From a virus (Duplodnaviria; Heunggongvirae; Uroviricota; Caudoviricetes): a DNA stretch of 42,224 nt. Position 1 is the first letter of the stretch, and the number at the start of each line of letters is the position of its first letter. A program made the translations under genes and the position numbers. The notes under the pieces were generated by a model. It did no database searches. It saw only the letters and a program-made list of their open reading frames with translations, and was not told the origin of the DNA. Positions 1-38,280 of the stretch are shown here, piece after piece. The DNA lies in the IMG/VR virus record IMGVR_UViG_3300031853_000004, positions 101,319-143,542 of that record; one strand, 5' to 3'.

Positions 1-3000
1 AGCAGTAATTTCAACTCTCTGTTTAATAGTATCTCCCCCAAGTTTATTAAATCCAGTTCCTTTAACAGACATTCCGCTAAATACTTTTAGCATGTCAGCC
101 ATATTTCTTACCATATTGACCGCATTTAAAATATTTTCAGTATCAGAAGAATTTAATACCAACTCTTTTTGATGTAACATTGCAATTCTTCCATCGCCAT
201 TTCAGTCACCAGTATAACCACCTGTATCGAACAGCTGTTCAGGTTTTACTCACCCAAGCCATCCGCCATCTTCAGGATCTTCCAAGTGTACAGAATAGTC
301 TCCGGTATATTGATATCCTCCAACAGAAGAACCTGAAAAATCTGAAATTCTCACCGCATTTGCCTGTCCAGAATACCAATTTCCTGCGGGGTCTTCTCCC
401 CAAGAGTCATAGTAGTATCAACCATTGAATCCTACAATATCTCCAACATGGAAGCCGCCTCTACTGCCACCGTCTCCATTACCTGAGATAGAAGGAGGTT
501 CAGGGACATTCCCATATTTATCTCTACGGCCAGCTGCAATATCATCAAGAATGGTTTGATAATTTAAATTCTGAGCTTTAGATTGATCTAAATCTTCTTG
601 TGCTTTTCGTAATTGTTGAGCAGTAACCGCACTTGAATTTTTAACATCATCTAGTTGCTTACGATATTCTTCAAGCTGCTCTGTAGCTTCAACTAATTGA
701 GCATTATCACCCATTAAAGCATCATTTAGCTCACGAGTAGCCGCGGCTAAATCTTTAGTTGAGTTAGTTGCTTCTATAATAGCACCATCAATATTATTAA
801 AACCATTAGTTACTATTGGAGCTACTTCATCTTCAATTAAAGTGCGATATTTTTGAGCTTCATTTTGTATATCATTGCTTGCTCGATTATTAACATTCAT
901 TAGAGTATCTATATCTTCGATAACTCCGTCTATAGTTTCATTTCATTGAATACCTACTTCTCCAAGAGACTCATCAGTTTTTTCTTGGATAGCCGTCATA
1001 GCTTGTTCGGCCATGTCTCTAATATTATCTGTACCAGTTTCAGTCATTCATTGAAGAGCACCAACCATACCCTCTCAAGAATCACCCAGCTCTTCTGAGT
1101 AGGCAGCCATATCTCTTGCAAAATCCTCTTCGAGTTTTTTAAGAGCATCCGCAGCATCTTTATCACCTTGCTCAGCTCTTTGAACCAAAGCTTCTCTTTG
1201 TTGGATATAATTTTGATATGCACTTAACCAATCTGAGTATGTATTCATTCTGTTTTCAGTAGACATATTATAAGCATCAAACTCAGTTTGTAATAAATCA
1301 GCTTCTTTATCTCTTACATCATTTTGATTAGCAGAATAAACATATCTGTAATTACCTTGAGTATCTCTGCGAAGACGCATTTGATTTTTATTATTTCTAG
1401 CGTCTTCTAATGCTATCTGTTTTTGAAGAATTTCAAGTTGAGCATTTGCATATTTTACATTAAACTCTGAAAGATGCTCTTGATCTTGTAGATATTTCAC
1501 TTGCTCTTCCATTGCATCTCTAATTTGATTTTGAATAGCTAAGCTTGAACCCTGAGCATCGTCCAAGAAGTCAAGATATTTAAGTCTAAGTTGTTCTATT
1601 AAGTTAGCTTTCTGTACTTCATCATAATATCTATCAGCATAATTTTTGTCACGTTCTCAGTCAGAAGATATATCATCTATATTACGAGTACCAAATAAAC
1701 GTTGATTTTCTTTCGCTGTAATTTCTTTAATTGCATTTTCAAAAGCCTTTTGCCAAGCATCCGCAACTTCTTTCTGAATTTCAATTAATCTATCTTCTGC
1801 TTCTTCCATATTAGTGCGGACTTGCTTTGCTATGTCAGAAGTTTTATCTTCAATCGCTTGATATCTTGCTACTCACTGTTCATAGATTAACTTTTGATCT
1901 CTGGCTTGCTGTAAGGTAGTACGACCTATTTGGTCATAAAGTTTAGATATGTTACCAAACTCTTCTTCTCCATATACCAGAGCTCGTACATCAGCTATTG
2001 TCTCAAGTTTATCAGTTAATCTATCATAACGATCAATTTGTTCTTCTTCTCTTTCAGCAATATCATCATAGCCATCTATGATATCTTCTTCAAGTTGTTC
2101 TCAAGCTTTTTCTGACTCTAAAGCTAACTCCCGCATTCTATTATAAGCATCTTCATATGCTTCATATAAAGCTGCGGTATTTTGCTGGAAAGGATTATTA
2201 GCTGCATTTGGATTATCTATCCAAGTTTGCAATCTAGCTAAATCTTGACTTGCCAAGCCTAACGCGCCAGTCCCTAAAGGATTATTAGCAGCCGCTCCTT
2301 GTTGCTGTCGGAAGAATGCCGCATATGATTGATACGTAGCACGACTCTCTGCATCAGTAGCTCTTCTAGCCATTTCTTCATTCTTGTCAATTAATGTTTG
2401 ATAATAATCTATAGCTTCTTTCTTGGTTCCACCAAAAATATTTTTAAGCTTCTCTGCATCTACTATAGTTGCTCTAAATGGAGAATCTGATTTATAATCT
2501 GTAAATAAACCAAGAAGTTCCGCAGCATTGTCTCGGAGTTCTTTAATATCATCTATTGCTTGTTGTGATGCTTTATATGCTTCAATCCGCAAATCTTCAA
2601 TAGCGTCTTTTAATTCTTCTATTTGATTTAGAGTTTCTTTAATTTCTTTACCTTGAAGTTCATCATAACGTTGGTAAAGATCTTTAAATTTATCCAGGTC
2701 TTTTTGAGCATTTTCTATAGCAAGTTCTAAATCTTCCTGACCTTCTTCTGTAGCGGTATTATTATATTCATTAATTAAATCATTGACTCTACCTTCAAGA
2801 GATTTTAAGACTTGAGGATAATTGGAAATAAATCCTTCTGAATCGAATTTCGTTCCAAAAGGAGAAAGTTGATTTCTTAAATCATTTCTTTCTTTTTCTT
2901 GGATAGCAAGTTTTTCTTTTTGGAGGTCAATCTCTTTTTCAAGCAAAGTGATTTGCTTATTCATATTGGCGCGACCTTCAGGGCCAATTAATCTATCAGT

Positions 3001-6000
3001 TTCTTGTTGAATTCCTGAAAGAGTTTCTTCAACATCATTCAACTGAGTATTAACTTTTTCATAAAGATCTATTTCTTCTTCGATAGGGTCTTTGGTCTTT
3101 GGCTCATAAGTATCTCCTGAGCCGCCACCGCCTCCACCGCCTCCTCCTCCTTTGCCTCCACCAGAGCCACCGGTATTCTTACGATAAGTACCCCCTCCAG
3201 AATTCCCACCTTTCTTTCTGAGAGTTACTTGAGGAACGGATATGTTAGATACACCTGTTTGAGCAAAACTGATTGCTGACTTTACGCTAGATCCTATGGC
3301 TGCTCCTGCTGCGCCTCCTGCAAAAGCTCCTACTACACTAGAAGCTACATCTGCCATTGCAGATCCAACATTATTTGTCATTTCTATAATTGGCATAGGA
3401 ATCGTTGCATTACTTATTTCAACTTCATATCCTATTCCATCAAAAGCATTATTAATAACTTCTGCAGCTTCTGGAGAGGCAGCCATCATCTCAGATAAAG
3501 CATCTAAGAATGGAGCATCATCTAGAGTTGCACCTACTTCTAAATCAGGTAAAGCTGCGTCTGCTATACTTAGTCATTCTATTAATTGAGGAATTTGTTG
3601 CTCTGTTAAAGAAGTAGTCTCTAAATATGCTTGTAAATTAATTGGATCAGCGAAGGCTTCTCTTAATCTATAAATAGCAGAAGTATCGCCTTCTGCTAAT
3701 TCTCCCAATGCTCTTAGCGTATCTTCGCTTTGTAAAAAAGTATCGGTAATTGCTGATGGATCAACGTTCAAAATTTGACTTAATATATTTTGTAAATCAG
3801 TATAAGCAGAAGCTATTTCTCCAGGTGAACCATTTGAAATTGCATCATTGATATTTTCTCATTTTTCAGATAATTCATCCATTCCATTTGCTGTTTCTAA
3901 CGCTTCAACCGCAAACTGTTTTAAATCTTCTTTTGCTTTATCTAAGGAATTTGCTAAATTTTTTACTTCTTTTTGTGTTTTTTCAAAATCAGGCGCTTCT
4001 TCAGACATGTTCGATAATGCTTTATTTGCTTCTTCATAAGAATTAGTTAATTCGTCTATAGTTTCTCTTAAAGTATTGATTTCTCCTTCATCAACACCAG
4101 CCCCACCGCTTGCTTTAAAGCGCTCAACGTAATCGTCAATAGGTACATCTTCCATTTTAGCTGTCTTAAAAATCTCTTCTATCTTCTCTTGAGAATATCT
4201 ACCTATTTTACTAAGATTTTCTTCGGAAGGCTCTTGTAAGACAGTTTTTAATATAACTTCTAAATTTTCTCCATTATTTAATCTATTAACGATATTTCTT
4301 AAATCTCTTTCAATTTCTTCTCTTGTTTTATCTTGATCAATTGCTCCAACAATTTTAAATTGATCTTTAATATCAATATTTTTTAATATTTCAGAAAAAT
4401 CAATATCTTTACCTTGTCCACTAAGAGATAATTCAACTTCTTTTACACCTAAAGTTGCTTTAGCACTCTCATCAGTAATTAACTTTAATGCTTGTTGTAT
4501 TTTTTGTAATTCAGAAAAAGTATTTTCTGAAAAATAATTTGAAACTAAATTATTATTATCTGACTGTAAAATATTTAAAATTTCTGATATATCTGTTATA
4601 TCTTCAAATTGCTCTTGGAAATCATTTTGTTGCGATCTCGCATTAAATTCACTCTGCTGTGCATCTTTTGCATTTTGAGCATCTTCTGAATTTAAAAAAT
4701 CTTGAGTTAATTTAATTGCTCGCTCTATTTCAGCATTAGTATCTTTTCAAGCTTTAGTTCTTTTTTCTTCATTAGAAGCATTATTACTTTCTTCTTGAAG
4801 CTTTTTAAACTCTTCTAGTCTGTTTTCCATCGTACCAATAATTGCAACATCATCAGATAAATCAAAGATATTTGTAGAAGAAAGAACGTCTCTTATCTCT
4901 TGACTTTTAGTTCCACCAATACCAAAACGTCCTCTATATAATTCACTTCCACTATTTATTGCAGCTTGCCCAAGTTTAGAGCCAGCAGCTCCGCCTTCTC
5001 ACCATTCTGTTCCAAGACTGTCTTTTCTAACTTGTTCAGCCGCATTAATTAAATCATCTAATTTAGCTTGATTGGCATTTTCAATAGCCTTCGCCAGACC
5101 ATTAAAATTATTTGCGGCAATCATAGCATCAGTACCTGCTATACCAAGTTCTATACCTAACTCTTTCGCACTATTCTTTAATTCATCAGAAACTTTTCCG
5201 CTTTCTTTAAAAGATTCATATAGCTTATTAAAATTATCAATTTTATTACTGAAATCTTCACTTTCAGTTTTTAATTCATCAAATAATTCTTTATTTTTTC
5301 TTCTTGTCTCTTTTACTGATTCTACATAAGAATTAAAAGCTGCTACTGCTACTCCAATAGCAGTTGCAAGAGCTAAAAAGGGATGAGCAAGAATAACAGC
5401 TTTTAAAGAAGAAAAACCATTTTTTACTAAATCTAGTATACTTGGTAACTTCGCAGCTTTTTGGTTTAATCCTTCTGTAGCAATATCAACCATTGCCATC
5501 CCTTTTTCAACGCCAGGAGCTGCATTTTTAAGTTCATTTAGTTTTTTGGTAGCTTCTGCTCCAGCATTTGAAACATTTTCAAGGTTTTTAGCATAATTAT
5601 TCATGCTACCGCCATTACTAATATGCTCAATCAATTCATCATAAGCCAAAATTCCTTGATCTTCGATTTTTTTTAATTCTGCAACTATGTCTGTTGATGA
5701 AGACGTGAATGTGTTTGAAAATATGGACAAAAGATCTTTTTGTTTTAAAGTATCAAAAGCTGTAACTAACTGAGGAACAGTCATACTTAAATTCATTATT
5801 GTCTGAAGAATTTTATCTCCAGTTGTTAAATCTTCATTAGATCAAATACTTCCTAAATTTTGAAAACTTTGTCAAGCAAAAGCTAATTGTCCAACAGCAG
5901 CAGTAGTATCAATAATAGATTTTATTTGTTTCTGATTATCTAATCCTTCATTAAAAGCTTTAGCTTCGCTTTCAGAACGTTGTTTCATAGCTTTTCCTTG

Positions 6001-8328
6001 AGCAAGACTAGATTCTCCGGTCATTAAAGTTCTCAATAAATTATCTATATTAACTCTACCAGAAGTTAAACCTTGAATAGATTCAATAAATTTAGTAGCT
6101 TCCAGCGTTAATTCTCTAAGCTCTTCTTCATTTTTATTAGCGCTACCTTCAAAATTAATCATTTTATTTTCAAGATTTTCAAGCTGTTCAGCCATTTGAT
6201 TAAATTCTTCTGTTTGTAAAACACCAGCTTCTCTAAAATCTTGTAAAGCATTACTGGCACCATTAAAAACATTTTTTAATTTATCTGCCTTTTGATCCAT
6301 TGTTAAAGTACCAGAGTTAAAATCTTTTTGCATTTGAATAACAGTTAATAAAGATTCTTTAAACTCTATTGCAGCACTTTTACCATCTTTAAAATTTTGC
6401 ACATATTGTTTTAAATTTTCTCCTTGAGAAAACTGACTTAACATTTCTGCAAGAGCCTGCGTATCTTTTCCCAAAGCAGTATCCTGTACTGCGGCTCCAA
6501 CTATACCGGCTGCTCGTATAGCTTTTTCCATTTTTTCAGTTTCTTGTGCTACCATATTAGAATTATTAGTAATATCTAATAAAATTCTATTATATTGTTC
6601 TGCTTGCTGCTCCGACATATTAGGCAAAGCCTCTTGTCCTTTCATAATAAAATCTACAGTATTTTTAGAAGCTTGTCCTTGAAATGTTGTCGGATCAGTA
6701 AAACCAAGTTGTCTTAATGTATCAGGAACATTTAAAGCATTATCTTTTCTAGCTTGTTCTATTTTACGATTTATATTGGCATCATTAATCATTTGAGCCA
6801 TATTGTTACTAAATAATTTACCAAATAAAGCGACTACTCCTGTTAAAACAGTTTGTCCTCCACCAAGAGAATCAACTAATTTCTTAATTAAATCTACAAA
6901 ACTAGTTAAAGCATCCACTGCTGGATAAAAATTATCTGGATTAAAAACTGAATTAAATAATCCTTCTAATGTTGCTTGAAGCTTTGCTGTTCTCCCAGCC
7001 ATTGAATTAATATATTCTTCATTCATTTGATCAAGAGTACCACTTGCATTTAATGAAGCTTTTGCGTATTGATCATACATTTCAGGAGAATTCATTAAAG
7101 CTTCAAAACGACCTAATTGATATTTTCCTGCTACAGTTTGCGCTATCGCAGCTTTTTGAGTAGAATCTAGATCACTTCAGATCTCCATCATATCTTCTAT
7201 CATATCACCAACACTGCGCATTTTACCTTCTGCGTCAAGGACTTCAACTCCTATTCCTTGAAGGGCGCTGGTAACTTTGCCAAGATCAACACCGTCTTCT
7301 AAAGTTTCTCCAGCTTTTAAATCAGAAAATCTAGCATATAAAGTTTTAAGACCATTGCCGATTTGTTCTGGAGCTTCTTTTGTTACAGACTCTATAGTTG
7401 CAATTTGAGCATTTAATTGTTCAAGACTAACATCAACAGTTGCTGCGGTAGAAGCTGCTTTTTGAGAAGCTTTTGCGAGTTCTTCTACGTCTGCTGCTGA
7501 TACATTTGCTACCATGGCTCACGAATCAAGTGCTTTTTCTAATTCCTCCATACTTCCTGATAAATGATATGCATTCATTAAAGCAGTAATTTGATCAGAG
7601 GTAGTCGCAGAATCTTGCTCTGAAGCATTAGCTAATTTAATTGATAATTCTGCTAATTGACTTGACTGTTGAAGATCAAATCCTTGCTGAGCAAATACTT
7701 GAGATCCTCGTGTAACATCTACCGTAGTTGCTCCTAAAGCCTTAGCAGCTTCATTAGCGCTTTTAGCATATTCATTCATCTGTTCACGAGAATAGTCTGT
7801 TACTAACATAATTTGAGTTAAAGAATCATCCAATTCTTTAACATAGTCAACACTTTGATGTAAAGAATTTAACATAGCACTAAAACCACTTGATACTACG
7901 CCTCATCTAACAGTATTAGATATAGTATTAAACATTTTATCTACTGTTGTAGAGCTACGTTTTAATCCTGTATCAATTTTACCAATTTGGCCAAGAAGAT
8001 TATTCATAGCAACTTGCCCTTGAGCACCGCTATTTTTAAAAGCTATCCCTAAATCTTTTGCTGTAACTCCCGCAGCCTGTATTTGTGCTTTAAATTTTGA
8101 TAAATCTAACATACCAAGAGAAGAGTTAAAAGAAGAAGACAGTGCTTTGTTCAATTCTTGTAGCTGTCTAATTGGTTCATTAAAATTTAATTTATCATTA
8201 AGATCGTTGCCTGATAATCTTCTTAAAGAGGCTTCAACTTCTCTAATTTGAGTTTGTAATTGCGTTAAGCCACTTGAATCAAGCTTAGTTGATATAGAAT
8301 ATTCTATAGTATTTGAATATTTCGCCAT
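1..8328 (-). CDS. Tape measure protein (>2775 aa, C-terminus runs off the window); requires TGA=Trp
   Basis: ATG at 8328 with RBS GAGGAGG. One frame open to position 1 with no TAA/TAG and 18 in-frame TGA (7903, 7519, 7177, 5872, 5842, 4999, 4747, 3859, 3574, 2101, 1873, 1657, 1075, 1048, 943, 418, 250, 202), joining nine track ORFs. TMP-type motifs NTVR(W)G, EI(W)SDLDSTQKAAIAQTVAG and FDTGGYTGD(W)NGDGRIAMLHQKELVLN; Gly-rich linker near 3120-3210. Confidence 0.93.
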
Positions 8329-30582: not shown

Positions 30583-30816
30583 ATGGAAAGCACCTATATC
30601 GCAAAAATTTTTATAAATCTTGACAATGGAGATAAGATTCTTTATGATGAAATTTCTCTGTCAGAAGACTTTTCTAATGACCAATTTAATCAAATGCTTA
30701 ATGATTGTCTCTCGCAAATTAATCATAACACATATTTACAATTTTATAAAACAATTATTTTTACAAACCATGTCTCAAAAATCAACATAGAAACTTCAGT
30801 AGATTATCATTATTAA
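30583..30816 (+). CDS. Hypothetical protein (77 aa)
   Basis: RBS GAAAGG; TAA stop. Confidence 0.7.
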   Translation: MESTYIAKIFINLDNGDKILYDEISLSEDFSNDQFNQMLNDCLSQINHNTYLQFYKTIIFTNHVSKINIETSVDYHY

Positions 30817-30977
30817 ACAAACAGACCTAAGTAAGTCTTTAAACTGCTTAATTTTTTACACGGCAGATCCTTGCGGTGATCTTGCTGCATAAATATTTTA
30901 AAGTCCTGTGCCGGCAGATCCGTATCAAATATTTAACTATATCTCTAAACAAAAAGAGTGCTTGCGCACTCTTTCTA

Positions 30978-31220
30978 TTATAATCTAATTGTAGTAATAA
31001 CACCATCCTTAATCTTGATAGCTCGACGGTCGCCCTCTTCACGACCAAACACTTCAAATAGTGATTCATTTTTAAGAACCTCGACGCGGCCAACGTTTGA
31101 ATGTTTGATAAAGTAACGAGCTTCTTTCTCGGCATCCCGCAGAGTATTAAAGTTTGAATGAGTAATGATATCATTGGTGAAACGAGCAAAAGCAACTACG
31201 AAATAGATATTACATGCCAT
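30978..31220 (-). CDS. Hypothetical protein (80 aa)
   Basis: RBS GAAAGGA; promoter TTGACA-17-TATAGT; terminator about 30951-30975. Confidence 0.75.
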   Translation of the reverse strand: MACNIYFVVAFARFTNDIITHSNFNTLRDAEKEARYFIKHSNVGRVEVLKNESLFEVFGREEGDRRAIKIKDGVITTIRL

Positions 31221-31418
31221 GACAAAATCCTTTCTCTTTAACGCTACATATACTATAGTTCATCTATTGGAATATGTCAATAGCTTCATAAAATCTACAC
31301 AAACGCGTGCCGGCGCAGAATATGTAGATTTTGTGAATGAAAATTTTTCTTGCTTCCCGCTTTATAATCTGGTATAATTATATTAGAAATAAAAAAGACG
31401 AAAGATTGGAATTGAAAA

Positions 31419-31568
31419 ATGCTATTGTTCCTCGGATGGGTTGTATTTTCTATTATCATGATACTTATTAGTGTATTTCTTGACAAAAATTATTATCTTG
31501 GTTTCTGGTACTATTGTTTTATTGGTTTACTTTTTGGAGTTGTAACTGCTATTTTTTCAATCCTTTAA
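31419..31568 (+). CDS. Small two-helix membrane protein (49 aa)
   Basis: Two hydrophobic segments; upstream TATAAT; weak RBS. Confidence 0.55.
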   Translation: MLLFLGWVVFSIIMILISVFLDKNYYLGFWYYCFIGLLFGVVTAIFSIL

Positions 31569-31610
31569 AATGAAAATTAAACTTGTTTCCTCCAAGAGAA
31601 AGGTAAAAAG

Positions 31611-31880
31611 ATGAAAGATTTTAAAAGTTATCACGTGGTTATTGATATTGATTTTTTAAATAACCGCGGCCTGCTTGGTAATTATCATAATACTTATGAT
31701 TCAAAATTGGAAATGAAAGCTATTAATAAATACAAAGATGCTATTTGGGATATCCAAGGTTTAATCAATAATTCTATTTCTATTAATCAAGATTTTTATA
31801 TCAATGCTAATATTACACTTTATGGTATTACTTTTGAAAATGAATATATTATTATGCGTCACCTTGAGCTAACATTATAA
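31611..31880 (+). CDS. Hypothetical protein (89 aa)
   Basis: RBS GAAAGG; TAA stop. Confidence 0.72.
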   Translation: MKDFKSYHVVIDIDFLNNRGLLGNYHNTYDSKLEMKAINKYKDAIWDIQGLINNSISINQDFYINANITLYGITFENEYIIMRHLELTL

Positions 31881-32013
31881 ATGAAAATGAAAAAGGGATT
31901 GTTTTTTGATTCCTTTTTCATTATCATTTTGCCCGGCACTCAATTATGAAAATTTTGTGAAGAACCTAAAACTATGCTATACTTTAATCAAGTCAAAGAG
32001 AGAGGAAATATTA

Positions 32014-32274
32014 ATGAATACTATTTATGGATGTTACTTCACAGATAATGATAGTGAAGAAATGTTATTATTTGCTTGTGATACAGTTGAACAAGTAATA
32101 GTTGCTATATATAAAGATATAGATGAACATTTGTTTTTTCCGATAGAAGAAATTAGACTTGATTGGGATTGTGAAAATGACGAAAATCCAACATGGGGCT
32201 TAATAAATATCTTTGCTGATAATGCGTTGCAATGTCGTTTTGTTTTTGAAAGAATCCCTTACATAAAAAAATAA
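32014..32274 (+). CDS. Acidic hypothetical protein (86 aa)
   Basis: RBS GAGAGG; TAA stop; followed by the pseudoknot motif. Confidence 0.72.
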   Translation: MNTIYGCYFTDNDSEEMLLFACDTVEQVIVAIYKDIDEHLFFPIEEIRLDWDCENDENPTWGLINIFADNALQCRFVFERIPYIKK

Positions 32275-32386
32275 AATAAATAACCTGAGCATGTTATAAA
32301 ACTGCTTTTGTGTATTTTCTATGAATAGACCTATTCTGTAGTAAGATATAAGAGTAAAGAAAACCACGAAAGAAGAGGGTCTAAAA

Positions 32387-32605
32387 ATGCGTAAAGAAGA
32401 TAAAGAAAAGAATCTTTCATTAGCTATTACAATTTGGTACGCCATTATTCAAAAACGAGGATATTTTGATTATTGGTTGGATTATAAAGAATGTGAACAA
32501 TGGATTATGAAACAATATCCAAATATCAAAAAAACTATAATTCATAAAGCCTTTTGGCATTATGTAAAAAAAGATACAGAATTCCTAGAAGAATTTGAAT
32601 GTTAA
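32387..32605 (+). CDS. Hypothetical protein (72 aa)
   Basis: RBS GAGGG; 4 Trp, all TGG; TAA stop. Confidence 0.72.
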   Translation: MRKEDKEKNLSLAITIWYAIIQKRGYFDYWLDYKECEQWIMKQYPNIKKTIIHKAFWHYVKKDTEFLEEFEC

Positions 32606-32744
32606 AATAAAATATCCCGAGCAATGATATAAAAAGGCTCAATAATCTTTAAGTTATCAATCTGTCCGGCGCAACTTATGAAGATTTTATGAATTGCAAA
32701 AACATGTGGTAACATAGTATTATCCAAGAGAGAAAGGAAAATAA

Positions 32745-32813
32745 ATGGAATTCATTCTTAGTATTGTTTTATTTACTCTATTGGGCACTATGGCAATCGT
32801 ACAGATTGGATAA
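32745..32813 (+). CDS. Hydrophobic mini-protein (22 aa)
   Basis: Same CCAAGAGA..AAGG RBS cassette as its neighbours; MEFILSIVLFTLLGTMAIVQIG. Confidence 0.5.
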   Translation: MEFILSIVLFTLLGTMAIVQIG

Positions 32814-33048
32814 TTGATGACAAGGCGAGTATTTTTTAAAATTATTCCTACTATTTTGATTGGAGTTAAGGCCGCACTGTGCGGCCTCCCTTATCTTATA
32901 ACTTTTAAAGTATCATGATCACCGGCATGAAACATCAAATGATTAATAATTCACAATTCCTACAAATATAAAAATGACAATTAACTTGAGATTCAAACAG
33001 TCTATAATAATAATTGTCAGAAAGAAAGAACTAAAAGAAAGGATAAAA

Positions 33049-33291
33049 ATGTTTTATGCCTACCGTGCGAATGATGCTGAAAGTTTGATGATTAATCCTT
33101 CTACAGGCGACCATCTTTTTTTTGATATGGACACTCTTAAAAAGGCTGTAGAAGAAGATGCTAAAGAAGAAATGTATGAAGATGGAGATTCAATTCCTTA
33201 TATTCTTATTGACCTAAAAAATAAAACTTTCAAAACTCTTAAAGTTTACTATGTTATTACTTATACTACTAAAATTAAAATAGAGGATTAG
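33049..33291 (+). CDS. Hypothetical protein (80 aa)
   Basis: RBS GAAAGGA; TAG stop; followed by the pseudoknot motif. Confidence 0.72.
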   Translation: MFYAYRANDAESLMINPSTGDHLFFDMDTLKKAVEEDAKEEMYEDGDSIPYILIDLKNKTFKTLKVYYVITYTTKIKIED

Positions 33292-33562
33292 TTATTTGTC
33301 CTGAGCATGACTTAAAACTACTCATTTTTTATATCTTTTCTATAAAAAATTTTAATTTTTTGCATAAAAATGTGTACAAAGATCGTGCCGGCCGCACTTT
33401 TCAACATTATTTTCAACAAAAAAGAATTAAAAATCGATCAGTTTTCAACAAAAATAATATAATTTTCTCTAAAAACAATTAAAATGTGGAGATTCTATGG
33501 AGCTATTGACTTTAAAAAGCAAATGCCTATAATAATAATTGTGTCCAAGAGAAAGGAAAAAT

Positions 33563-34267
33563 ATGAAAAAGGTATTTGCAATTCTTGACATTGAGACTGT
33601 AACCGATGCTCGTTTGGCTTTTGATATTGCATGGATTGTATGTGACTCAAAGGGTAATGAGCTTGAGCGTTACAATGCACTTGTTAAAGATATTATTGAT
33701 AGTCCTTTTGGAATGGCATTTCTTAGGCGAGATAGTTTCATTAAGAACAAGGCTCAAATGTATATTGATGCTATTGTTTTTAATAGTATGGATATTAAAC
33801 CTTTTGAAGAAATTATGCAAGATTTTAATTCAATTTCAAAGCGTTACAATGCTAAAACTGTTATGTGCGCCTACAATGCAAAGTTTGATTTTAACGTTCT
33901 GAATGATAATGCAAGTTATATTTATGGATGCGGCGATGCATTTTTTGATGATGATATTGAAATTGTTGATATCATGACAATGGCATTGGCTACTATTTGT
34001 GATACTAATAAATATATTCTTTGGTGTATTCAGAATGGAATGGTAACAGAAAAAAATAACATTAGGACTAATGCACAAACTGTTTATGCTTACATGCTTA
34101 ATAATGCTGAATTTGTAGAAGCACATCACGCACTAGAAGATTGTGAAATTGAAAAAGATATATATTTTAAGGCTCGCAAGCGTAAGCAAAAGCATCACAA
34201 AGATTTTGCAATGCCAATGTTTAGGTGTCCTGAGTGGAAAAAAGTACAATCTAGGAATGTTCATTAA
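33563..34267 (+). CDS. DEDDh 3'-5' exonuclease (DnaQ-like, 234 aa)
   Basis: ExoI LDIET, ExoII AYNAKFD, ExoIII HHALED; RBS GAAAGG; promoter TTGACT-17-TATAAT. Confidence 0.88.
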   Translation: MKKVFAILDIETVTDARLAFDIAWIVCDSKGNELERYNALVKDIIDSPFGMAFLRRDSFIKNKAQMYIDAIVFNSMDIKPFEEIMQDFNSISKRYNAKTVMCAYNAKFDFNVLNDNASYIYGCGDAFFDDDIEIVDIMTMALATICDTNKYILWCIQNGMVTEKNNIRTNAQTVYAYMLNNAEFVEAHHALEDCEIEKDIYFKARKRKQKHHKDFAMPMFRCPEWKKVQSRNVH

Positions 34268-34437
34268 TTAAAAATGGGCGGGGAAAATTAAATTCCTCGC
34301 CTTATTTTTATATCTTCTGAACTGTGGAGATTTTATGGGGTTGCGCCGGCGCGATCAAAATATGAAGATTTTGTGAATCAGTCTAAAATATGGTATTCTA
34401 TAAGTGTAAAAAGAATTCTGGCTGAAAGGACTTAACC

Positions 34438-34641
34438 ATGATTTATTCTTTTATTCTTGAAGGCGAAAACATTGATGGCGATATCCTCACATTATGCGTT
34501 GAATTTGAAAACGTCGAATCCTTTAAGGATGCTTGTGAGTTAGCCGAACTTGAAGCTATCCACATGCTTGAATCTGAAGAAGGCGGACATATTGATATTT
34601 TTGATATTGATGGGAATTTCATCAATGATGTAGAAGTATAA
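34438..34641 (+). CDS. Acidic hypothetical protein (67 aa), paralog of 41414..41608
   Basis: Shares GE.(I/L)DGD and GGHID.F...D.F..DVEV with 41414..41608. Confidence 0.75.
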   Translation: MIYSFILEGENIDGDILTLCVEFENVESFKDACELAELEAIHMLESEEGGHIDIFDIDGNFINDVEV

Positions 34642-34789
34642 CCAACAAACATCCTAGGCACGATGTAAAACTACCTACATAATTTTTTAAACGATCGTGC
34701 CGGCACGAAATGTGAAAATTCTATGGAGAAAGCTAGACTGTGTTAATATATAAGTGTAAGAAAAAACCAATAAAAGAAAGGCAATAAAA

Positions 34790-34957
34790 ATGTTTATTTA
34801 CAAGATTTTTGAAAATATTTGTTTAAAGTTTGAAACATTTTTTTGTTTTTGTGCCAAATACATTAATTGGAATTTTTTTCAGCCAATTGTTATGTTTTTT
34901 AATGATTGTGCATGGTATTGGGATGATAAAATTAATGATATTAGAATAGCAGACTAA
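34790..34957 (+). CDS. Aromatic-rich small protein (55 aa)
   Basis: RBS GAAAGG; TAA stop; followed by the pseudoknot motif. Confidence 0.6.
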   Translation: MFIYKIFENICLKFETFFCFCAKYINWNFFQPIVMFFNDCAWYWDDKINDIRIAD

Positions 34958-35070
34958 ATTAATAATTTATCCTAGGCACGATGTAAAAAGGCCTTTATGA
35001 ATTTTCTATGAACCAGCCTATTTTATAGTAAGACATAAGAGTAAGAGAAACCACGAAAAAAGGAAACAAA

Positions 35071-35238
35071 ATGACTGCTAACGACCTACTCATTGAAATT
35101 TTGAGTAATGCTTGTACACTTGACGCTGATATTCAAATTGCTACATATAATTATGATTTAGACGATTATGAATTTTGGCCGCTTGAAAAAGCATTTATTA
35201 ATTATGATGAAAAAAATATTACACTAATCGCTAATTAA
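35071..35238 (+). CDS. Small acidic protein (55 aa)
   Basis: RBS AAGGA; TAA stop; followed by the pseudoknot motif. Confidence 0.65.
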   Translation: MTANDLLIEILSNACTLDADIQIATYNYDLDDYEFWPLEKAFINYDEKNITLIAN

Positions 35239-35375
35239 TTAATAACATCCTGAGCATGATGTAAAAAGGCTTATATAATTTTCTTAAATTTTGCACCGGC
35301 GCGAATGTGTAGATTCTATGGAGACACTAAAGATGTGCTATACTTTAATCAAGTCGAAGAGAGAGAGGATTAAAC

Positions 35376-35609
35376 ATGCAACACATCAAACTTTGGGTAA
35401 TCACTGTTAACCCAAAACAGGGCTATGGAGCGCCTTACTATTTTATATATCAAAATGGTGATAACGCAATGAATAAATTTCAAGAATTAATTAATAAATA
35501 TAATCTTAGTATTGTCGGATTGTTGAGGAATGAAGCAATTGCGGGAGATGATGGCGACCATAAACATATTAATAGAATAATAATTGAACCTGATTATACT
35601 TGTGATTAA
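35376..35609 (+). CDS. Hypothetical protein (77 aa)
   Basis: RBS GAGAGGA; TAA stop. Confidence 0.72.
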   Translation: MQHIKLWVITVNPKQGYGAPYYFIYQNGDNAMNKFQELINKYNLSIVGLLRNEAIAGDDGDHKHINRIIIEPDYTCD

Positions 35610-35624
35610 AGAAAGGAAAATAAA

Positions 35625-35753
35625 ATGCTTATTTGGATTTGTGATTTTAATGCTCATGTAAAGTATCCTTGCACCGACTTAATTACGGCGAGTAAATGGT
35701 ATCATTATCTTGTTGATATTAAAAATCATACTGATTGTGCAATAACAGATTAA
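35625..35753 (+). CDS. Small protein (42 aa)
   Basis: RBS GAAAGGA; TAA stop; followed by the pseudoknot motif. Confidence 0.62.
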   Translation: MLIWICDFNAHVKYPCTDLITASKWYHYLVDIKNHTDCAITD

Positions 35754-35840
35754 CATAATTATCCTGAACAAGATATAAAACTGTTCATTTTTTTATTTTA
35801 ATAGTTAAAAATTTTATTGTGCGCCGGATCTACCTTTAAT

Positions 35841-35854
35841 CGAACATGCGTTCT
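35841..35854. promoter_or_regulatory. LexA (SOS/Cheo)-like box
   Basis: CGAAC-ATGC-GTTCT; related boxes at 36220, 36778 and 39051. Confidence 0.55.
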
Positions 35855-35961
35855 GTAGTACCGGCGTGAAATGTGGAGATAATATGAAGCTATTGACATA
35901 GAAAAATGTTCCCCTATAATAATAATTGTCAAAAAGAAAAACCAAAAGAGAGGATAAAAAA

Positions 35962-36144
35962 ATGGCTAAATCTAAATATATAACAGTTTCTTTAGATATT
36001 AATTTTTATGACATTGATGGAATTGAGGGACTTCTTGAAATGCTTAAATATAATCATACAACGATTCTTGATATTATTATAGAAGGATACTCTTCAGACT
36101 ATGGAACATCAATTAAAAAAATAGAGGAACATAAATTTAACTAA
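35962..36144 (+). CDS. Hypothetical protein (60 aa)
   Basis: RBS GAGAGGA; promoter TTGACA-17-TATAAT; followed by the pseudoknot motif. Confidence 0.7.
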   Translation: MAKSKYITVSLDINFYDIDGIEGLLEMLKYNHTTILDIIIEGYSSDYGTSIKKIEEHKFN

Positions 36145-36426
36145 AAATGTTATCCTGAGCAGGATAAAAAACTACTCTTTTTTTAATTTAATATACCATG
36201 CGCCAAGTTCACTTCTGATCGAACATCTGTTTTGTAGCACTGGCGCATGTAGTTTCACTTTTTATGAGTGCCGATCCTCTTAAATCAATATCTTAACCAT
36301 TCACAATTCCTACAGATATAAAAATGACAATTGACTCAATCTAAGAAGTGTCTATAATAATAATTGTCAGAAAGAAAAGGTTCCCCAATAAGACTTGAGC
36401 CTAATAGCTCGGGAAGGTTGGTCACT

Positions 36427-36660
36427 ATGGCTAACACGGTTACATATGCAAACGCACTCGCCGCTGTGGTTAATCAACAGGACGAAATCGAACGGCTTAA
36501 GGTCGAAAACGCGAAGTTAAGAGAACTAATACAAAGAAGAGTTAAAGACTATATGTATGAGAATTGCAGCGATTGCTGGGGCGGTCTCTGCGAAGAGTGT
36601 CAATGTTGGATATCCGAATGCGCGAACGAGCTTTGTGAGCTCAGAGTTGAAGTGAAGTAA
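36427..36660 (+). CDS. Chimeric hypothetical protein (77 aa): coiled coil plus Cys-rich segment
   Basis: A 29-nt leader/N-terminus segment is identical to that of 38281, then unrelated sequence (EIERLKVENAKLREL...CSDC...CEECQC). Confidence 0.72.
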   Translation: MANTVTYANALAAVVNQQDEIERLKVENAKLRELIQRRVKDYMYENCSDCWGGLCEECQCWISECANELCELRVEVK

Positions 36661-36777
36661 CTATCACTCCTGAGCATGAGTCTAAACCGCTCATTTTTTA
36701 TGTCCAAATAGTTAAATTTTGATTTGATGCAATTCAATTTTTGATGTAGGGTCTGCCCGGCACGATCTTTTTTAGTC

Positions 36778-36791
36778 CGAACTGACGTTCG
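36778..36791. promoter_or_regulatory. LexA (SOS/Cheo)-like box
   Basis: CGAAC-TGAC-GTTCG, with perfectly palindromic arms. Confidence 0.6.
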
Positions 36792-37158
36792 ATAATTATG
36801 CCGGCGCGAATCTATAACTTTAAAGTTATGAACAATCAAAAAATTTTATATAAATAGTCATCATAAACGGCCGCAACATTATAACATGCCCGCCGCAATC
36901 TTGTCAAGAGAAACCGATCAATTCACAAATTCCCCACAAATAAGAAAAGAAATCATTTTAGTACAAGTCCTGATATTCGATTTTAGAATTTAATTAATCT
37001 ATTTATTAAAAACACCTCGATCTACCTGCGGTTTCACAAAATCTGCAAATATAAAAATGACAATTGTATTGTACGTTAAAAGTAGTATAGTAATAATTGT
37101 CAGGGGGACAAAGAGTCCCAATCCAATCGACCCTGCGGGGTCAAGAAAGGGGTGCCCT

Positions 37159-37533: not shown

Positions 37534-38280
37534 TTAAAAGGGTTATGGGGTTCCCAATAAAAACCCCAACCATTTAACCTCTTCTATTGAAAAGATTCTT
37601 ATGCATCCACCTTAATGTTTTTATTAAATCCTATCCACCCCATAACAAAGGAGTTATGATGCATCCACCATAATGTTACAAAAGGGGAATATAGCATTTT
37701 GAGCGTTTGGCTATTAGTACCCTTAAATATTAAAACGCTCTACCTTGCAAGTATTCTAGACCATGCTTGCAAGGTATAATTTTAAGTAAATAATTAAGAT
37801 TTTTATGCAAGTATCGATCAGGATTATAATTAAAATTTTTATCTAGGATCCGCCGGCACGATCTCACTAAAACCAAACAAATATTTGATCATTATGCCGG
37901 CGCAGATCTATAACTTTAAGATCATACTTGATCGAAAAATTTTAACTAATATTCTGATATAAGAATTTTACATAAAAGATCATCGTAGATGGCCGCAAAA
38001 TTATAGCATGCCCGCAACCAATATGTCAATGTCATTCACCGATTCACAAACTTCTCACAAATCAAAAATACAATCATTTTTGGTGCCAGTTTTGATGTGC
38101 CATTTTAGCTTCCCATTAACTTTTTGATAAAAACCAAGCGATCTACCTGCGGCTTTACAAAATCTACAAATATAAAATTGTGAATTGTACTGCACAAAAT
38201 TATGTGCATAATAATAATTGTCAGGGGGAAAGAGGTTCCCCCAATGGATTCGCCCCATCGGGCGGGAGAGGTTGGTCACT

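Follow-up and report, generated by a model that had tools for sequence, protein, structure and literature searches.

Which RNA element recurs behind the stop codons of small early genes in the genome of this rumen or gut phage, and what might it do there? The window, meaning the whole stretch of 42,224 nucleotides analysed (positions 101,319 to 143,542 of IMG/VR record IMGVR_UViG_3300031853_000004), was originally predicted to carry nine covarying H-type pseudoknots just downstream of such stops. All nine are present, with first stems (S1) starting at 32280, 32612, 33298, 34649, 34968, 35245, 35760, 36150 and 36666, and the nine predicted stop positions coincide with the ends of listed open reading frames (ORFs); the count itself rises to ten with a further copy at 30823–30850. 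Every copy lies on the + strand behind the TAA or TAG stop of a small early ORF. A covariance model built from the pseudoknot family returns exactly ten matches in the 143,542-base genome, all on the + strand at window positions 30820–36695 and with E values from 1.7e-8 to 4.3e-4, and the next best match has an E value of 0.37. The ten-copy set is far beyond chance.

With segments written in the order S1, loop 1 (L1), stem 2 (S2), junction, S1, loop 3 (L3) and S2, copy 0 (30823–30850; AGAC-C-TAAGTA-A-GTCT-TTAAAC-TGCTTA; model E 4.0e-7) follows the TAA at 30814–30816 that ends ORF 30583–30816, and is itself followed by A + TTTTTT at 30851–30857. Copy 1 (32280–32308; ATAAC-C-TGAGCA-T-GTTAT-AAAAC-TGCTTT) lies behind the TAA at 32272–32274, and copy 2 (32612–32641; ATATC-C-CGAGCA-AT-GATAT-AAAAA-GGCTCA), which lacks a T-run, uses a second tail register (register B) wherein S2 is GAGC/GCTC. 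Copy 3 (33298–33324; GTC-C-TGAGCA-T-GAC-TTAAAAC-TACTCA, then TTTTTT) is the one that follows TAG, the other nine stops being TAA. Compensatory S2 changes are evident in copy 4 (34649–34677; ACATC-C-TAGGCA-C-GATGT-AAAAC-TACCTA), which pairs TAGG with CCTA, and across six base pairs in copy 7 (35760–35787; TATC-C-TGAACA-A-GATA-TAAAAC-TGTTCA, then TTTTTTT). The lowest model score (E 4.3e-4) belongs to copy 5 (34968–34995; TATC-C-TAGGCA-C-GATG-TAAAAA-GGCCTT), whose S2 is AGGC/GCCT in register B. Copy 6 occupies 35245–35273 (ACATC-C-TGAGCA-T-GATGT-AAAAA-GGCTTA), and copy 8 (36150–36178; TTATC-C-TGAGCA-G-GATAA-AAAAC-TACTCT, then a T-run) has a weak S2 and an alternative fold as a 7-bp plain hairpin, UUAUCCU/AGGAUAA. 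Copy 9 (36666–36693; ACTC-C-TGAGCA-T-GAGT-CTAAAC-CGCTCA, then TTTTTT) ends the series.

From copy 0 to copy 9, the spacers between stop and S1 measure 6, 5, 6, 6, 7, 10, 6, 6, 5 and 5 nt. The short spacing originally described thus holds, with the single value given as 11 nt becoming 10–11 nt depending on whether S1 is read as TATC or ATC. T-tracts had also been predicted behind several copies. Six or more T residues directly behind S2, or after one A, are found at five (30823, 33298, 35760, 36150 and 36666), and TTTTGTG, partly overlapping S2 of the copy at 32280, is a possible sixth.

The ORFs ahead of the knots form an array on the + strand from 30583 to 36660 (30583–30816, 31906–32274, 32387–32605, 33049–33291, 34438–34641, 34790–34957, 35071–35238, 35376–35609 with 35625–35753, 35926–36144 and 36364–36660), and no Pfam match to any of them exceeds the curated cut-off. 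The same array includes an exonuclease-like gene (33563–34267, + strand) that ends instead at an ordinary intrinsic terminator (34276–34310, + strand), a 10-bp GC-rich hairpin at 34276–34302 plus a T-tract, which provides a contrast case inside the array. A second plain GC hairpin, at 32869–32887, follows a 22-codon mini-ORF. The replacement of ordinary hairpins in this stretch, as originally inferred, is therefore incomplete. Four pairs of sigma-70-like promoter hexamers (32981–33008, 33506–33533, 35893–35920 and 36331–36358, + strand), each with the extended box TATAATAATAATTGT and each followed by a strong Shine-Dalgarno sequence, are predicted to restart transcription behind knots.

The repeated motif is a real, selected RNA pseudoknot in which both helices covary, as was originally proposed. 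Across the family it is a compact H-type fold of about 33 nt. S1 has 3–6 bp of free sequence with an invariant closing C-G pair, L1 is a single C, S2 has 6 bp (UGAGCA/UGCUCA or compensated variants), the junction is one A or U, and the A-rich L3 ends in AAAC or AAAA. Among 149 covariance-model hits, all four Watson-Crick pair types occur in S1, and the four inner S2 pairs show two-sided changes in 35 cells and breaks in 5, a count made with a model that does not encode S2 pairing. The S1 pairs originally quoted are correct, as are the S2 pairs (TGAGC/GCTCA, TAGG/CCTA, AGGC/GCCT and TGAACA/TGTTCA), to which the tenth copy adds TAAGTA/TGCTTA. S1 sequence varies from copy to copy even within one phage, and conservation is strong at the helical junction and near-invariant at the unpaired L1 C and L3 AAA. 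The module is self-contained, with unconserved flanks. Either helix alone is weak, at −1.1 to −6.1 kcal/mol with unremarkable z-scores, values that describe nested folds rather than the pseudoknot. Consistent with the original failure to name a family, no Rfam 15 family matches, with ribozyme families and PreQ1 giving no hit even at E values up to 10, and a literature search found no paper describing the pseudoknot.

Judged from sequence matches, the element is not private to this phage and is common to more than a hundred unrelated phages. A pattern scan of IMG/VR gives at least 114 loci; S1 is complementary in 130 of 134 pattern matches, which contain 72 different S1 sequences, and a descriptor scan yields 216 matches versus 13 in reversed-sequence controls. 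Cultured carriers are ParMal1, DSS3phi2, S-RIM4, S-EIVl and Labelle, and the uncultured crAss-like cr7_1 is another. The carriers are phages of Actinobacteria, Cyanobacteria and Alphaproteobacteria, and probably of Bacteroidota and Firmicutes, and their knots lie at the 3′ side of genes that are mostly small and belong to early regions or regions of DNA metabolism. BLASTP among five knot-bearing phages reveals no protein common to them, which fits an RNA that acts alone against general host machinery. A search at BLAST sensitivity finds the pseudoknot in none of 5,426 E. coli genomes.

Placement also follows rules. In 166 of 207 members, the 60 nt ahead of the knot contain the end of a same-strand ORF of 50 codons or more; for opposite-strand ORFs the figure is 42 of 207. 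Stop and knot are never less than 4 nt apart, with a mode of 5–6 nt and 74 members at 4–8 nt, whereas the starts of generic GC hairpins from these loci are unrestricted, 76 of 279 falling at −12 to +3. Where cultured phages are annotated, 5–21 nt separate the end of the coding sequence from the start of the knot. The lower limit fits the leading edge of the terminating ribosome's footprint, so that a role connected with the ribosome has to be taken seriously as a rival to the explanation preferred below. Both this hard limit and the breadth of the family in unrelated phages had escaped the first reading of the sequence.

The context 3′ of the knots varies among a U-tract, a ribosome-binding site, a tRNA and a promoter, and the downstream sequence is unconserved over the family, with no common expression platform. 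A T-run occurs within 9 nt in 47 of 193 members. Of 204 members, 42 carry CC behind S2 and 22 carry CCA, the latter partly from one lineage. In one phage lineage, the knot ends 1–8 nt ahead of the 5′ end of tRNA-Asp. Often the knot is followed by a G-poor, C/A-rich unstructured leader, with the next start 20–40 nt downstream. Neighbouring genes run in the same direction in 112 cases and in the opposite direction in 15, a share that by our own estimate is not visibly above expectation for phage gene arrays and so gives no sign of operon-end enrichment. Among the 41 of 207 members without a 50-codon upstream ORF, a handful have no upstream ORF at all, and some of these sit about 25–30 nt behind a box resembling a T7-type promoter. 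One bacterial family has its UGA stop codon within the knot, which a ribosome must therefore open.

The fold, the family and its placement rules are established here, and from them we infer, tentatively, that the pseudoknot caps a cistron at its 3′ boundary and is itself proof against translation, serving as a terminator surrogate and an exonuclease block. The 6-bp S2 could be spanned across its deep groove by a one-base loop, and the placement of L3 might let it run along the minor groove of S1. Behind the stop, the knot would occupy the first position at which a terminating ribosome need not unfold it, so that translation of the gene would leave it intact. In the five or six of the ten copies with a U-tract after S2, closing of S2 may replace the terminator hairpin, and termination there would make each small early gene its own unit ahead of the next promoter. 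A 3′ end formed by termination or processing would leave the knot flush at the end, and 3′-to-5′ exonucleases would be stopped just behind an intact stop codon. In the tRNA-Asp lineage, RNase P cleavage at the abutting tRNA would make the knot 3′-terminal. Blocking of post-termination ribosomes could be a side effect or second use. The scarcity of T-runs over the family and the weakness of each helix alone argue against termination as the general role, and a plain barrier leaves the conservation of L1, L3 and S2 sequence across host phyla without explanation, which argues against the cap itself. Members without an upstream ORF, the bacterial family with UGA in the knot and the lack of operon-end enrichment were also counted against it.

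A close rival, possible though somewhat doubtful, is that the knot is a sequence-conserved version of the ‘ribosome termination structure’ (RTS), which at the mRNA-entry edge would halt sliding and unwanted re-initiation by post-termination 70S or 30S ribosomes, so that cistrons are translated independently. The 4-nt limit and 5–6-nt mode, which generic hairpins lack, speak for this insulator, as does the resemblance of the one-base L1, one-base junction and A-rich L3 to frameshift-stimulating knots, which with such architecture resist the ribosomal helicase. The ribosome is, moreover, a partner common to all hosts, as suits five phages with no shared protein, and the C/A-rich leader and nearby next start would fit. 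The published RTS signal has the same position and an insulating effect on re-initiation (PMC7518266), although generic hairpins suffice there, leaving conserved sequence without reason. Some members have no upstream ORF, most knots in the window precede T-runs and new promoters rather than a nearby start codon, and the spacing is just as compatible with a knot set as near the stop as it can be while escaping unwinding. Stimulation of stop-codon read-through, as by the MuLV knot, or of −1 frameshifting has the 5–7-nt spacer in its favour and AAAAAAA ahead of one copy (stop at 32274), yet is highly improbable. Nine of ten stops are TAA, a second in-frame stop limits the gain to 2–16 codons, as the original dismissal of read-through anticipated, the shifted frames are for the most part short and their few longer open stretches, at most 63 codons, are unconserved, nine copies lack a slippery site, and downstream sequence is unconserved. 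The sequence thus contradicts a recoding signal.

Three further readings concern the RNA's partners or its DNA. RNase P cuts pseudoknotted tRNA-like ends of plant viral RNAs, a precedent for the unlikely reading in which the knot directs cutting of polycistronic early transcripts, either as a tiny self-cleaving ribozyme or as a substrate of a universal RNase such as RNase P, with S2 stacked coaxially on S1 as an acceptor-like minihelix. The near-invariant L1 C, L3 AAA and closing C-G of a self-contained module, its intercistronic position, its abutment to tRNA genes and the CC or CCA behind S2 would suit processing; against it, no ribozyme family matches, 33 nt with one-base loops offer scant room for an active site, and CCA occurs only in a minority, partly one lineage. 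A site for a small molecule or protein (a riboswitch-like aptamer, the target of a phage or host regulator or nuclease by which early genes are turned off, or a decoy for a host defence, for instance the endoribonuclease of a type III toxin–antitoxin system) is rather improbable. Its topology, a hairpin with an A-rich tail and tail–loop pairing, resembles the preQ1-I aptamer and the predicted TenpI antitoxin knots (PMC12283969), and the conserved junction and several early-region copies would fit, but PreQ1 is not matched, the single A/U junction lacks a ligand-pairing C, no expression platform is common to the family and no protein to five carrier phages, copies are neither tandem nor beside a toxin gene, and S1 differs among copies of one phage. 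Very unlikely is a recombination boundary for swapping small genes between phages, with little RNA function. Small gene 34438–34641 and its knot do lie downstream of the exonuclease-like gene here and upstream of it in relative L004, conservation between relatives is limited to short islands that include knots, and the family is dispersed over unrelated phages. A DNA site, however, needs neither compensatory changes in two interleaved helices nor strict strand bias and a 4-nt limit, and with S1 different in almost every copy, identity tracts reach only about 10–12 bp.

The pseudoknot is thus a new, widespread and unnamed gene-boundary RNA, whose proposed function as a cap can be set beside known systems. 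Compact H-type recoding knots (luteovirid knots such as that of BWYV for −1 frameshifting, MuLV for read-through) lie 5–8 nt from the decoded codon and share its short S1, very short L1 starting with C, extruded junction base and A-rich L3. The phage element differs in having no slippery site in nine copies, no extended downstream frame, mostly TAA stops, an S2 of 6 bp rather than 3, and multiple copies per genome in DNA phages. The preQ1-I aptamer (RF00522), at about 34 nt, likewise pairs its loop with sequence behind an A-rich tail, but its model gives no match at E 10, its junction is a longer loop with a ligand-pairing C, and it resides in 5′ leaders of queuosine genes, unlike ten knots behind ORFs within 6 kb. 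Intrinsic terminators and 3′ stabilizer hairpins, such as REP elements and the hairpins that RNase III leaves on early mRNAs of T7, share the cistron 3′ end, and the U-tract directly behind about a quarter of the family is terminator-like; the knot, in contrast, comprises two interleaved short helices with weak nested energies rather than one GC-rich stem, is conserved in sequence across phyla, and mostly lacks a U-tract. PeSL (promoter-early stem-loop) cassettes of T4-type phages, reportedly described by Arbiol et al. in 2010 as lineage-specific promoter-plus-hairpin units, similarly punctuate arrays of small early genes shuffled between relatives, and the pseudoknot differs from them in being promoter-independent and common to unrelated phage families. 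The RTS signal, centred about 5 nt behind the stop, where the mRNA emerges from the shielding of a terminating ribosome, was proposed to insulate cistrons; it is a statistical feature of generic hairpins, demonstrated with a synthetic operon in E. coli (Chemla et al. 2020, Nat Commun; PMC7518266). The phage element shares this placement directly 3′ of stop codons, and differs in being absent, at BLAST sensitivity, from E. coli genomes, in having some copies without an upstream ORF and, where RTS has no conserved sequence or fold, in forming one conserved pseudoknot family.

Ten copies of a roughly 33-nt H-type RNA pseudoknot, called here the knot, follow the stop codons of small early genes on the plus strand of the window, starting at positions 30823, 32280, 32612, 33298, 34649, 34968, 35245, 35760, 36150 and 36666 (copies 0–9). 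The original prediction had counted nine; all of these are present, and scanning with a structure descriptor and with a covariance model recovered a tenth (30823-30850). The covariance model R1, built from 135 family members, yields exactly ten matches over the whole 143,542-base IMG/VR phage record of which the window is the final 42 kb (E values of 1.7e-8 to 4.3e-4, all on the plus strand), and the best non-knot match in the same genome has an E value of 0.37. The stop codons ahead of the ten knots are nine TAA and one TAG, and the spacers between stop and first helix (S1) measure 6, 5, 6, 6, 7, 10, 6, 6, 5 and 5 nt. The proposed spacing of 5–7 nt is thus seen, in nine copies rather than eight, and the single long spacer is 10 nt instead of 11.

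The knots occur in an array of small plus-strand ORFs at 30.5–36.7 kb of the window, most of which have a promoter-like sequence of their own together with a strong Shine-Dalgarno sequence. No array ORF matches Pfam above the curated cut-off except an exonuclease-like gene (33563-34267), which matches a PHROG. After a 22-codon hydrophobic mini-ORF (MEFILSIVLFTLLGTMAIVQIG; 32746-32814) with a good ribosome-binding site, a GC hairpin without a T-tract (32869-32887) stands in place of a knot. The closest relatives of the window phage encode an exonuclease-like protein that is 84–88% identical, and conservation between these genomes is confined to islands. In one relative (locus L004), the small gene at 34438-34641 and its knot lie on the opposite side of the exonuclease-like gene, which indicates that the knot moves together with the gene, forming the 3′ terminus of a cassette that is shuffled.

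From 5′ to 3′, the knot comprises the first strand of S1 (3–6 nt), a one-base loop (C), the hexamer UGAGCA or a variant, a single A or U (two bases in copy 2), the second strand of S1, an A-rich loop ending in AAAC or AAAA, and a complementary hexamer that closes the second helix (S2). Its tail occurs in two registers, AAAAC-UGCUCA and AAAAA-GGCUCA, the latter with a 5-bp S2. With one base bridging a 6-bp S2 and the A-rich loop running beside a short S1, the knot has the classical H-type geometry, as in the T2 gene 32 knot and the frameshift knots of luteovirids. Nested folding gives either helix alone, at −1.1 to −6.1 kcal/mol, energies that leave out the pseudoknot contribution, so stability, if any, must come from the knot.

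Both helices are supported among 149 model-aligned sequences, which bears out the earlier proposal of a selected, covarying pseudoknot and places the element in the H-type structural class; the base pairs originally quoted for the window copies are also correct. All four Watson–Crick pair types occur at two positions of S1 (for example, AU 65, GC 40, UA 22 and CG 21), and its closing C-G pair is invariant. The four inner S2 pairs exhibit 35 double-sided changes versus 5 broken cells, and because the model encodes S2 as sequence only, such double changes are penalized rather than favoured. S2 cells are paired in 93.7% of cases, a value that falls to 25–39% once the 3′ partner is slid by 1–3 columns. 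The compensated variants are TAGGCA/TGCCUA, UGAACA/UGUUCA, UGGACA/UGUCCA, UGGGCA/UGCCCA, UAAGCA/UGCUUA, UAGUCA/UGACUA and CAAGCA/UGCUUG.

An IUPAC pattern that specifies the loop, A-tract and tail but leaves S1 free occurs at no fewer than 114 IMG/VR loci. Among the pattern matches listed, S1 reaches at least 3 bp in 130 of 134 and at least 4 bp in 108 of 134, with 72 different S1 sequences. A structure descriptor returns 216 matches in 1.27 Mb versus 13 in reversed-sequence controls. The flanks are not conserved, and the six bases 3′ of S2 are G-poor. In named phages, BLAST and the model also detect the knot, which in every case lies shortly after an annotated CDS: the Autographiviridae Paracoccus phages ParMal1 and ParKuw1, the N4-like roseophage DSS3phi2 and its relatives, the T4-like cyanophage S-RIM4, cyanophage S-EIVl (seven copies), Mycobacterium phage Labelle and the crAss-like phage cr7_1 (two copies). 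Megablast of the window region against named phages gives no match. Applied to 596 Gb of prokaryote genomes, the same pattern finds mainly chance matches that lack S1 (only 43 of 119 have an S1 of at least 3 bp); about 30 matches, from Saccharibacteria, Clostridia, Actinobacteria, Deltaproteobacteria and other groups, appear genuine. At BLAST sensitivity, 5,426 complete E. coli genomes yield no knot.

At gathering scores, Rfam 15 annotates only four tRNAs in the window and only tRNAs in 28 further knot-bearing loci, and at E ≤ 10 it matches no knot in the region 32000-37000, in agreement with the earlier statement that it could not be assigned to a named family. Searching the literature by topic and for sequence strings turned up no account of the knot, and neither a genome-language-model preprint nor a catalogue of 10,000 candidate phage RNAs mentions it. 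The element is a new, widespread and unnamed RNA family of known structural class. The original interpretation is partly supported: what stands is a covarying RNA pseudoknot without an Rfam family.

In 166 of 207 members, the 60 nt ahead of the knot contain the end of a same-strand ORF of 50 codons or more, compared with 42 on the opposite strand. Spacers in these 166 members have a mode of 5–6 nt (4 nt in 7, 5 nt in 24, 6 nt in 21, 7 nt in 11 and 8 nt in 11, followed by a tail), and none is shorter than 4 nt save one outlier that resembles an artefact. Generic GC hairpins near ORF ends at the same loci begin at any offset, with 76 of 279 starting between −12 and +3. Takyar, Hickerson and Noller reportedly observed in 2005 that about four bases past the A-site codon lie within the mRNA channel and that unwinding occurs from about +11 of the first P-site base. 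On such ribosome-channel geometry, a 4-nt spacer is the nearest position at which a structure survives a ribosome on the stop codon.

Downstream contexts vary. Among 193 family members, a T-run lies within 9 nt in 47, and a Shine-Dalgarno sequence with a start codon follows 10–40 nt away in about 48. Cyanophages and roseophages have a C/A-rich leader of 20–33 nt before the next start, and the window has new promoters downstream of its knots. In one aquatic-phage lineage (L042, L073, L066, L086, L024, L010, L029, L084, L078, L054 and L101), an ORF ending in ...SAF-stop precedes the knot, and the 5′ end of a tRNA-Asp(GTC) lies 1–8 nt past it. A minority of members have no upstream ORF. At four loci with one knot each (L086, L090, L033 and L021), a conserved box resembling T7/SP6-type phage promoters (GATTAGGGCGATCATAGAAATACTATAGAGC) lies about 25–30 nt upstream of the knot with no ORF between.

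Other repeated elements occur in the window. Five copies of an intergenic box, ATGTGGAGATTCTATGGAG, where none is expected by chance (33484-33502, 34322-34340, 34710-34728, 35305-35323 and 35871-35889), lie between a knot and the next promoter, usually adjoined by a CCGGCGCG-like GC island that is upstream in most copies; this box may bind a regulator. An extended −10 box, TATAATAATAATTGT, occurs six times (33003-33017, 33528-33542, 35915-35929, 36353-36367, 37086-37100 and 38207-38221), with a TTGACN or TTAACT −35 hexamer 16 nt upstream in four, and looks like a class of strong early promoters for host RNA polymerase. Two leaders, each about 70 nt long and nearly identical (TTTTCTATGAA..CCTATT..TAGTAAGAYATAAGAGTAA..ACCACGAAA; 32309-32386 and 34996-35070), separate knot 1 and knot 5 from the ORFs that come next, and may represent a second promoter or leader class. 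No phage RNA polymerase was seen among phage ORFs of at least 450 amino acids. The phage also encodes DNA polymerase III alpha, gyrase A and B, anaerobic ribonucleotide reductase, RecJ and DnaB, as well as, outside the window, a TROVE-domain (Ro60-like) protein (G000:C1:34923-36374, minus strand). A tape-measure frame (2101-7095, minus strand) contains TGA in frame six times but neither TAA nor TAG, indicating that late genes read TGA as sense; ARAGORN lists no suppressor tRNA in the phage genome.

The conserved loop UGA was considered as a stop codon and rejected for phages, in which a long ORF seldom ends there and CAAGCA/TGCTTG variants occur. It does serve as a stop codon in one bacterial family of 20-codon ORFs (consensus MKRYAVPRIAHCSEGCxxxS), found on eight MAG contigs (L165, L171, L182, L195, L212, L230, L203 and L151) from Aminicenantes, Deltaproteobacteria, Acidimicrobiaceae and other bacteria. 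Each such ORF has a promoter and Shine-Dalgarno sequence, ends on the UGA within the knot loop and is followed by an ordinary terminator. Variation falls at synonymous positions, and the 20-residue peptide, which is too short for homology search, matches nothing in Pfam or NCBIfam.

The function we rank first, tentatively, is that of a putative translation-proof 3′ cap, which would double as a terminator surrogate where a U-tract adjoins. This ranking reflects the constant feature of the family, a cistron 3′ end bearing a structure placed to stay unopened by translation, and the expected 3′-end contexts (a U-tract or an abutting RNase P site), which leave the knot flush at the end. A U-tract follows five or six of the ten window copies and, within 9 nt, 47 of 193 family members. 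A consensus terminator scan of the window calls no knot a terminator, and the nested stems range from −1 to −6 kcal/mol. A putative ribosome insulator comes close behind, as a possible but less favoured function; it best accounts for the spacing, and the ribosome termination structure (RTS), an mRNA structure 3′ of stop codons (Chemla et al. 2020), provides a published analogue. All-against-all BLASTP finds no protein common to five carrier phages, with just three unrelated pairwise links, which favours an RNA acting by itself or on host machinery that is universal.

More speculative, and in our view unlikely, is the reading that the knot belongs to a new class of functional RNA working on its own. 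It would then be a self-cleaving ribozyme, the smallest in nature, that cleaves phage transcripts where genes meet, or else an element dedicated to ribosome binding that governs termination and recycling. On either view, horizontal transfer would have carried it among phages of five or more bacterial phyla, and some bacteria would have recruited it, with a 20-codon ORF ending on the UGA inside the knot. Below the insulator we place a putative processing site, as ribozyme or RNase P substrate, then a putative ligand or protein site, and then a recombination boundary and no more, an improbable reading. Recoding by read-through or −1 frameshifting is by far the least credible, being contradicted by the stop codons, TAA in all copies but one. 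As originally described, downstream frames are short and unconserved: in-frame extensions span just 2–16 codons, shifted frames and downstream sequence lack conservation, and a slippery-like run occurs in one copy only. Conservation of the S2 sequence and loop bases is unexplained by any of these functions and may reflect tertiary contacts that stabilize so small a knot.

A 33-nt RNA conserved nearly base for base among phages of Mycobacterium, Synechococcus and Ruegeria/Paracoccus, crAss-like gut phages and the TGA-recoded rumen or gut phage of the window, and absent from Rfam and searchable papers, points to a general, unrecognized rule of phage mRNA architecture. The minimum of 4 nt after the stop links an RNA fold, in quantitative terms, to the terminating ribosome's footprint. 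Because several carriers are cultured, end protection, hairpin-less termination, translational insulation and cleavage are directly testable. As a compact, host-independent boundary module, the knot would serve as an insulator in synthetic biology, and also as a gene-end annotation marker in metagenomic phages.

Two known RNA types of similar form were rejected as matches. The knot has no match to the preQ1-I riboswitch (RF00522), follows ORFs instead of lying in the 5′ leader of queuosine or transport genes, and has a single A or U as the loop between P2 and P1, where the riboswitch has a ligand-pairing C. Antitoxin RNAs of type III toxin–antitoxin systems (ToxI/CptI/TenpI), tandem repeats that precede a terminator and a gene for an endoribonuclease toxin, do not fit copies that are dispersed, one per gene end, about 280–1,460 nt apart, and the ORFs flanking the knots have no family match. 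The RTS signal peaks 5 nt after stop codons (PMC7518266), and the knot family likewise begins about 5 nt past the stop (minimum 4, mode 5–6). The family is placed like an RTS or a terminator, yet is distinct from both.
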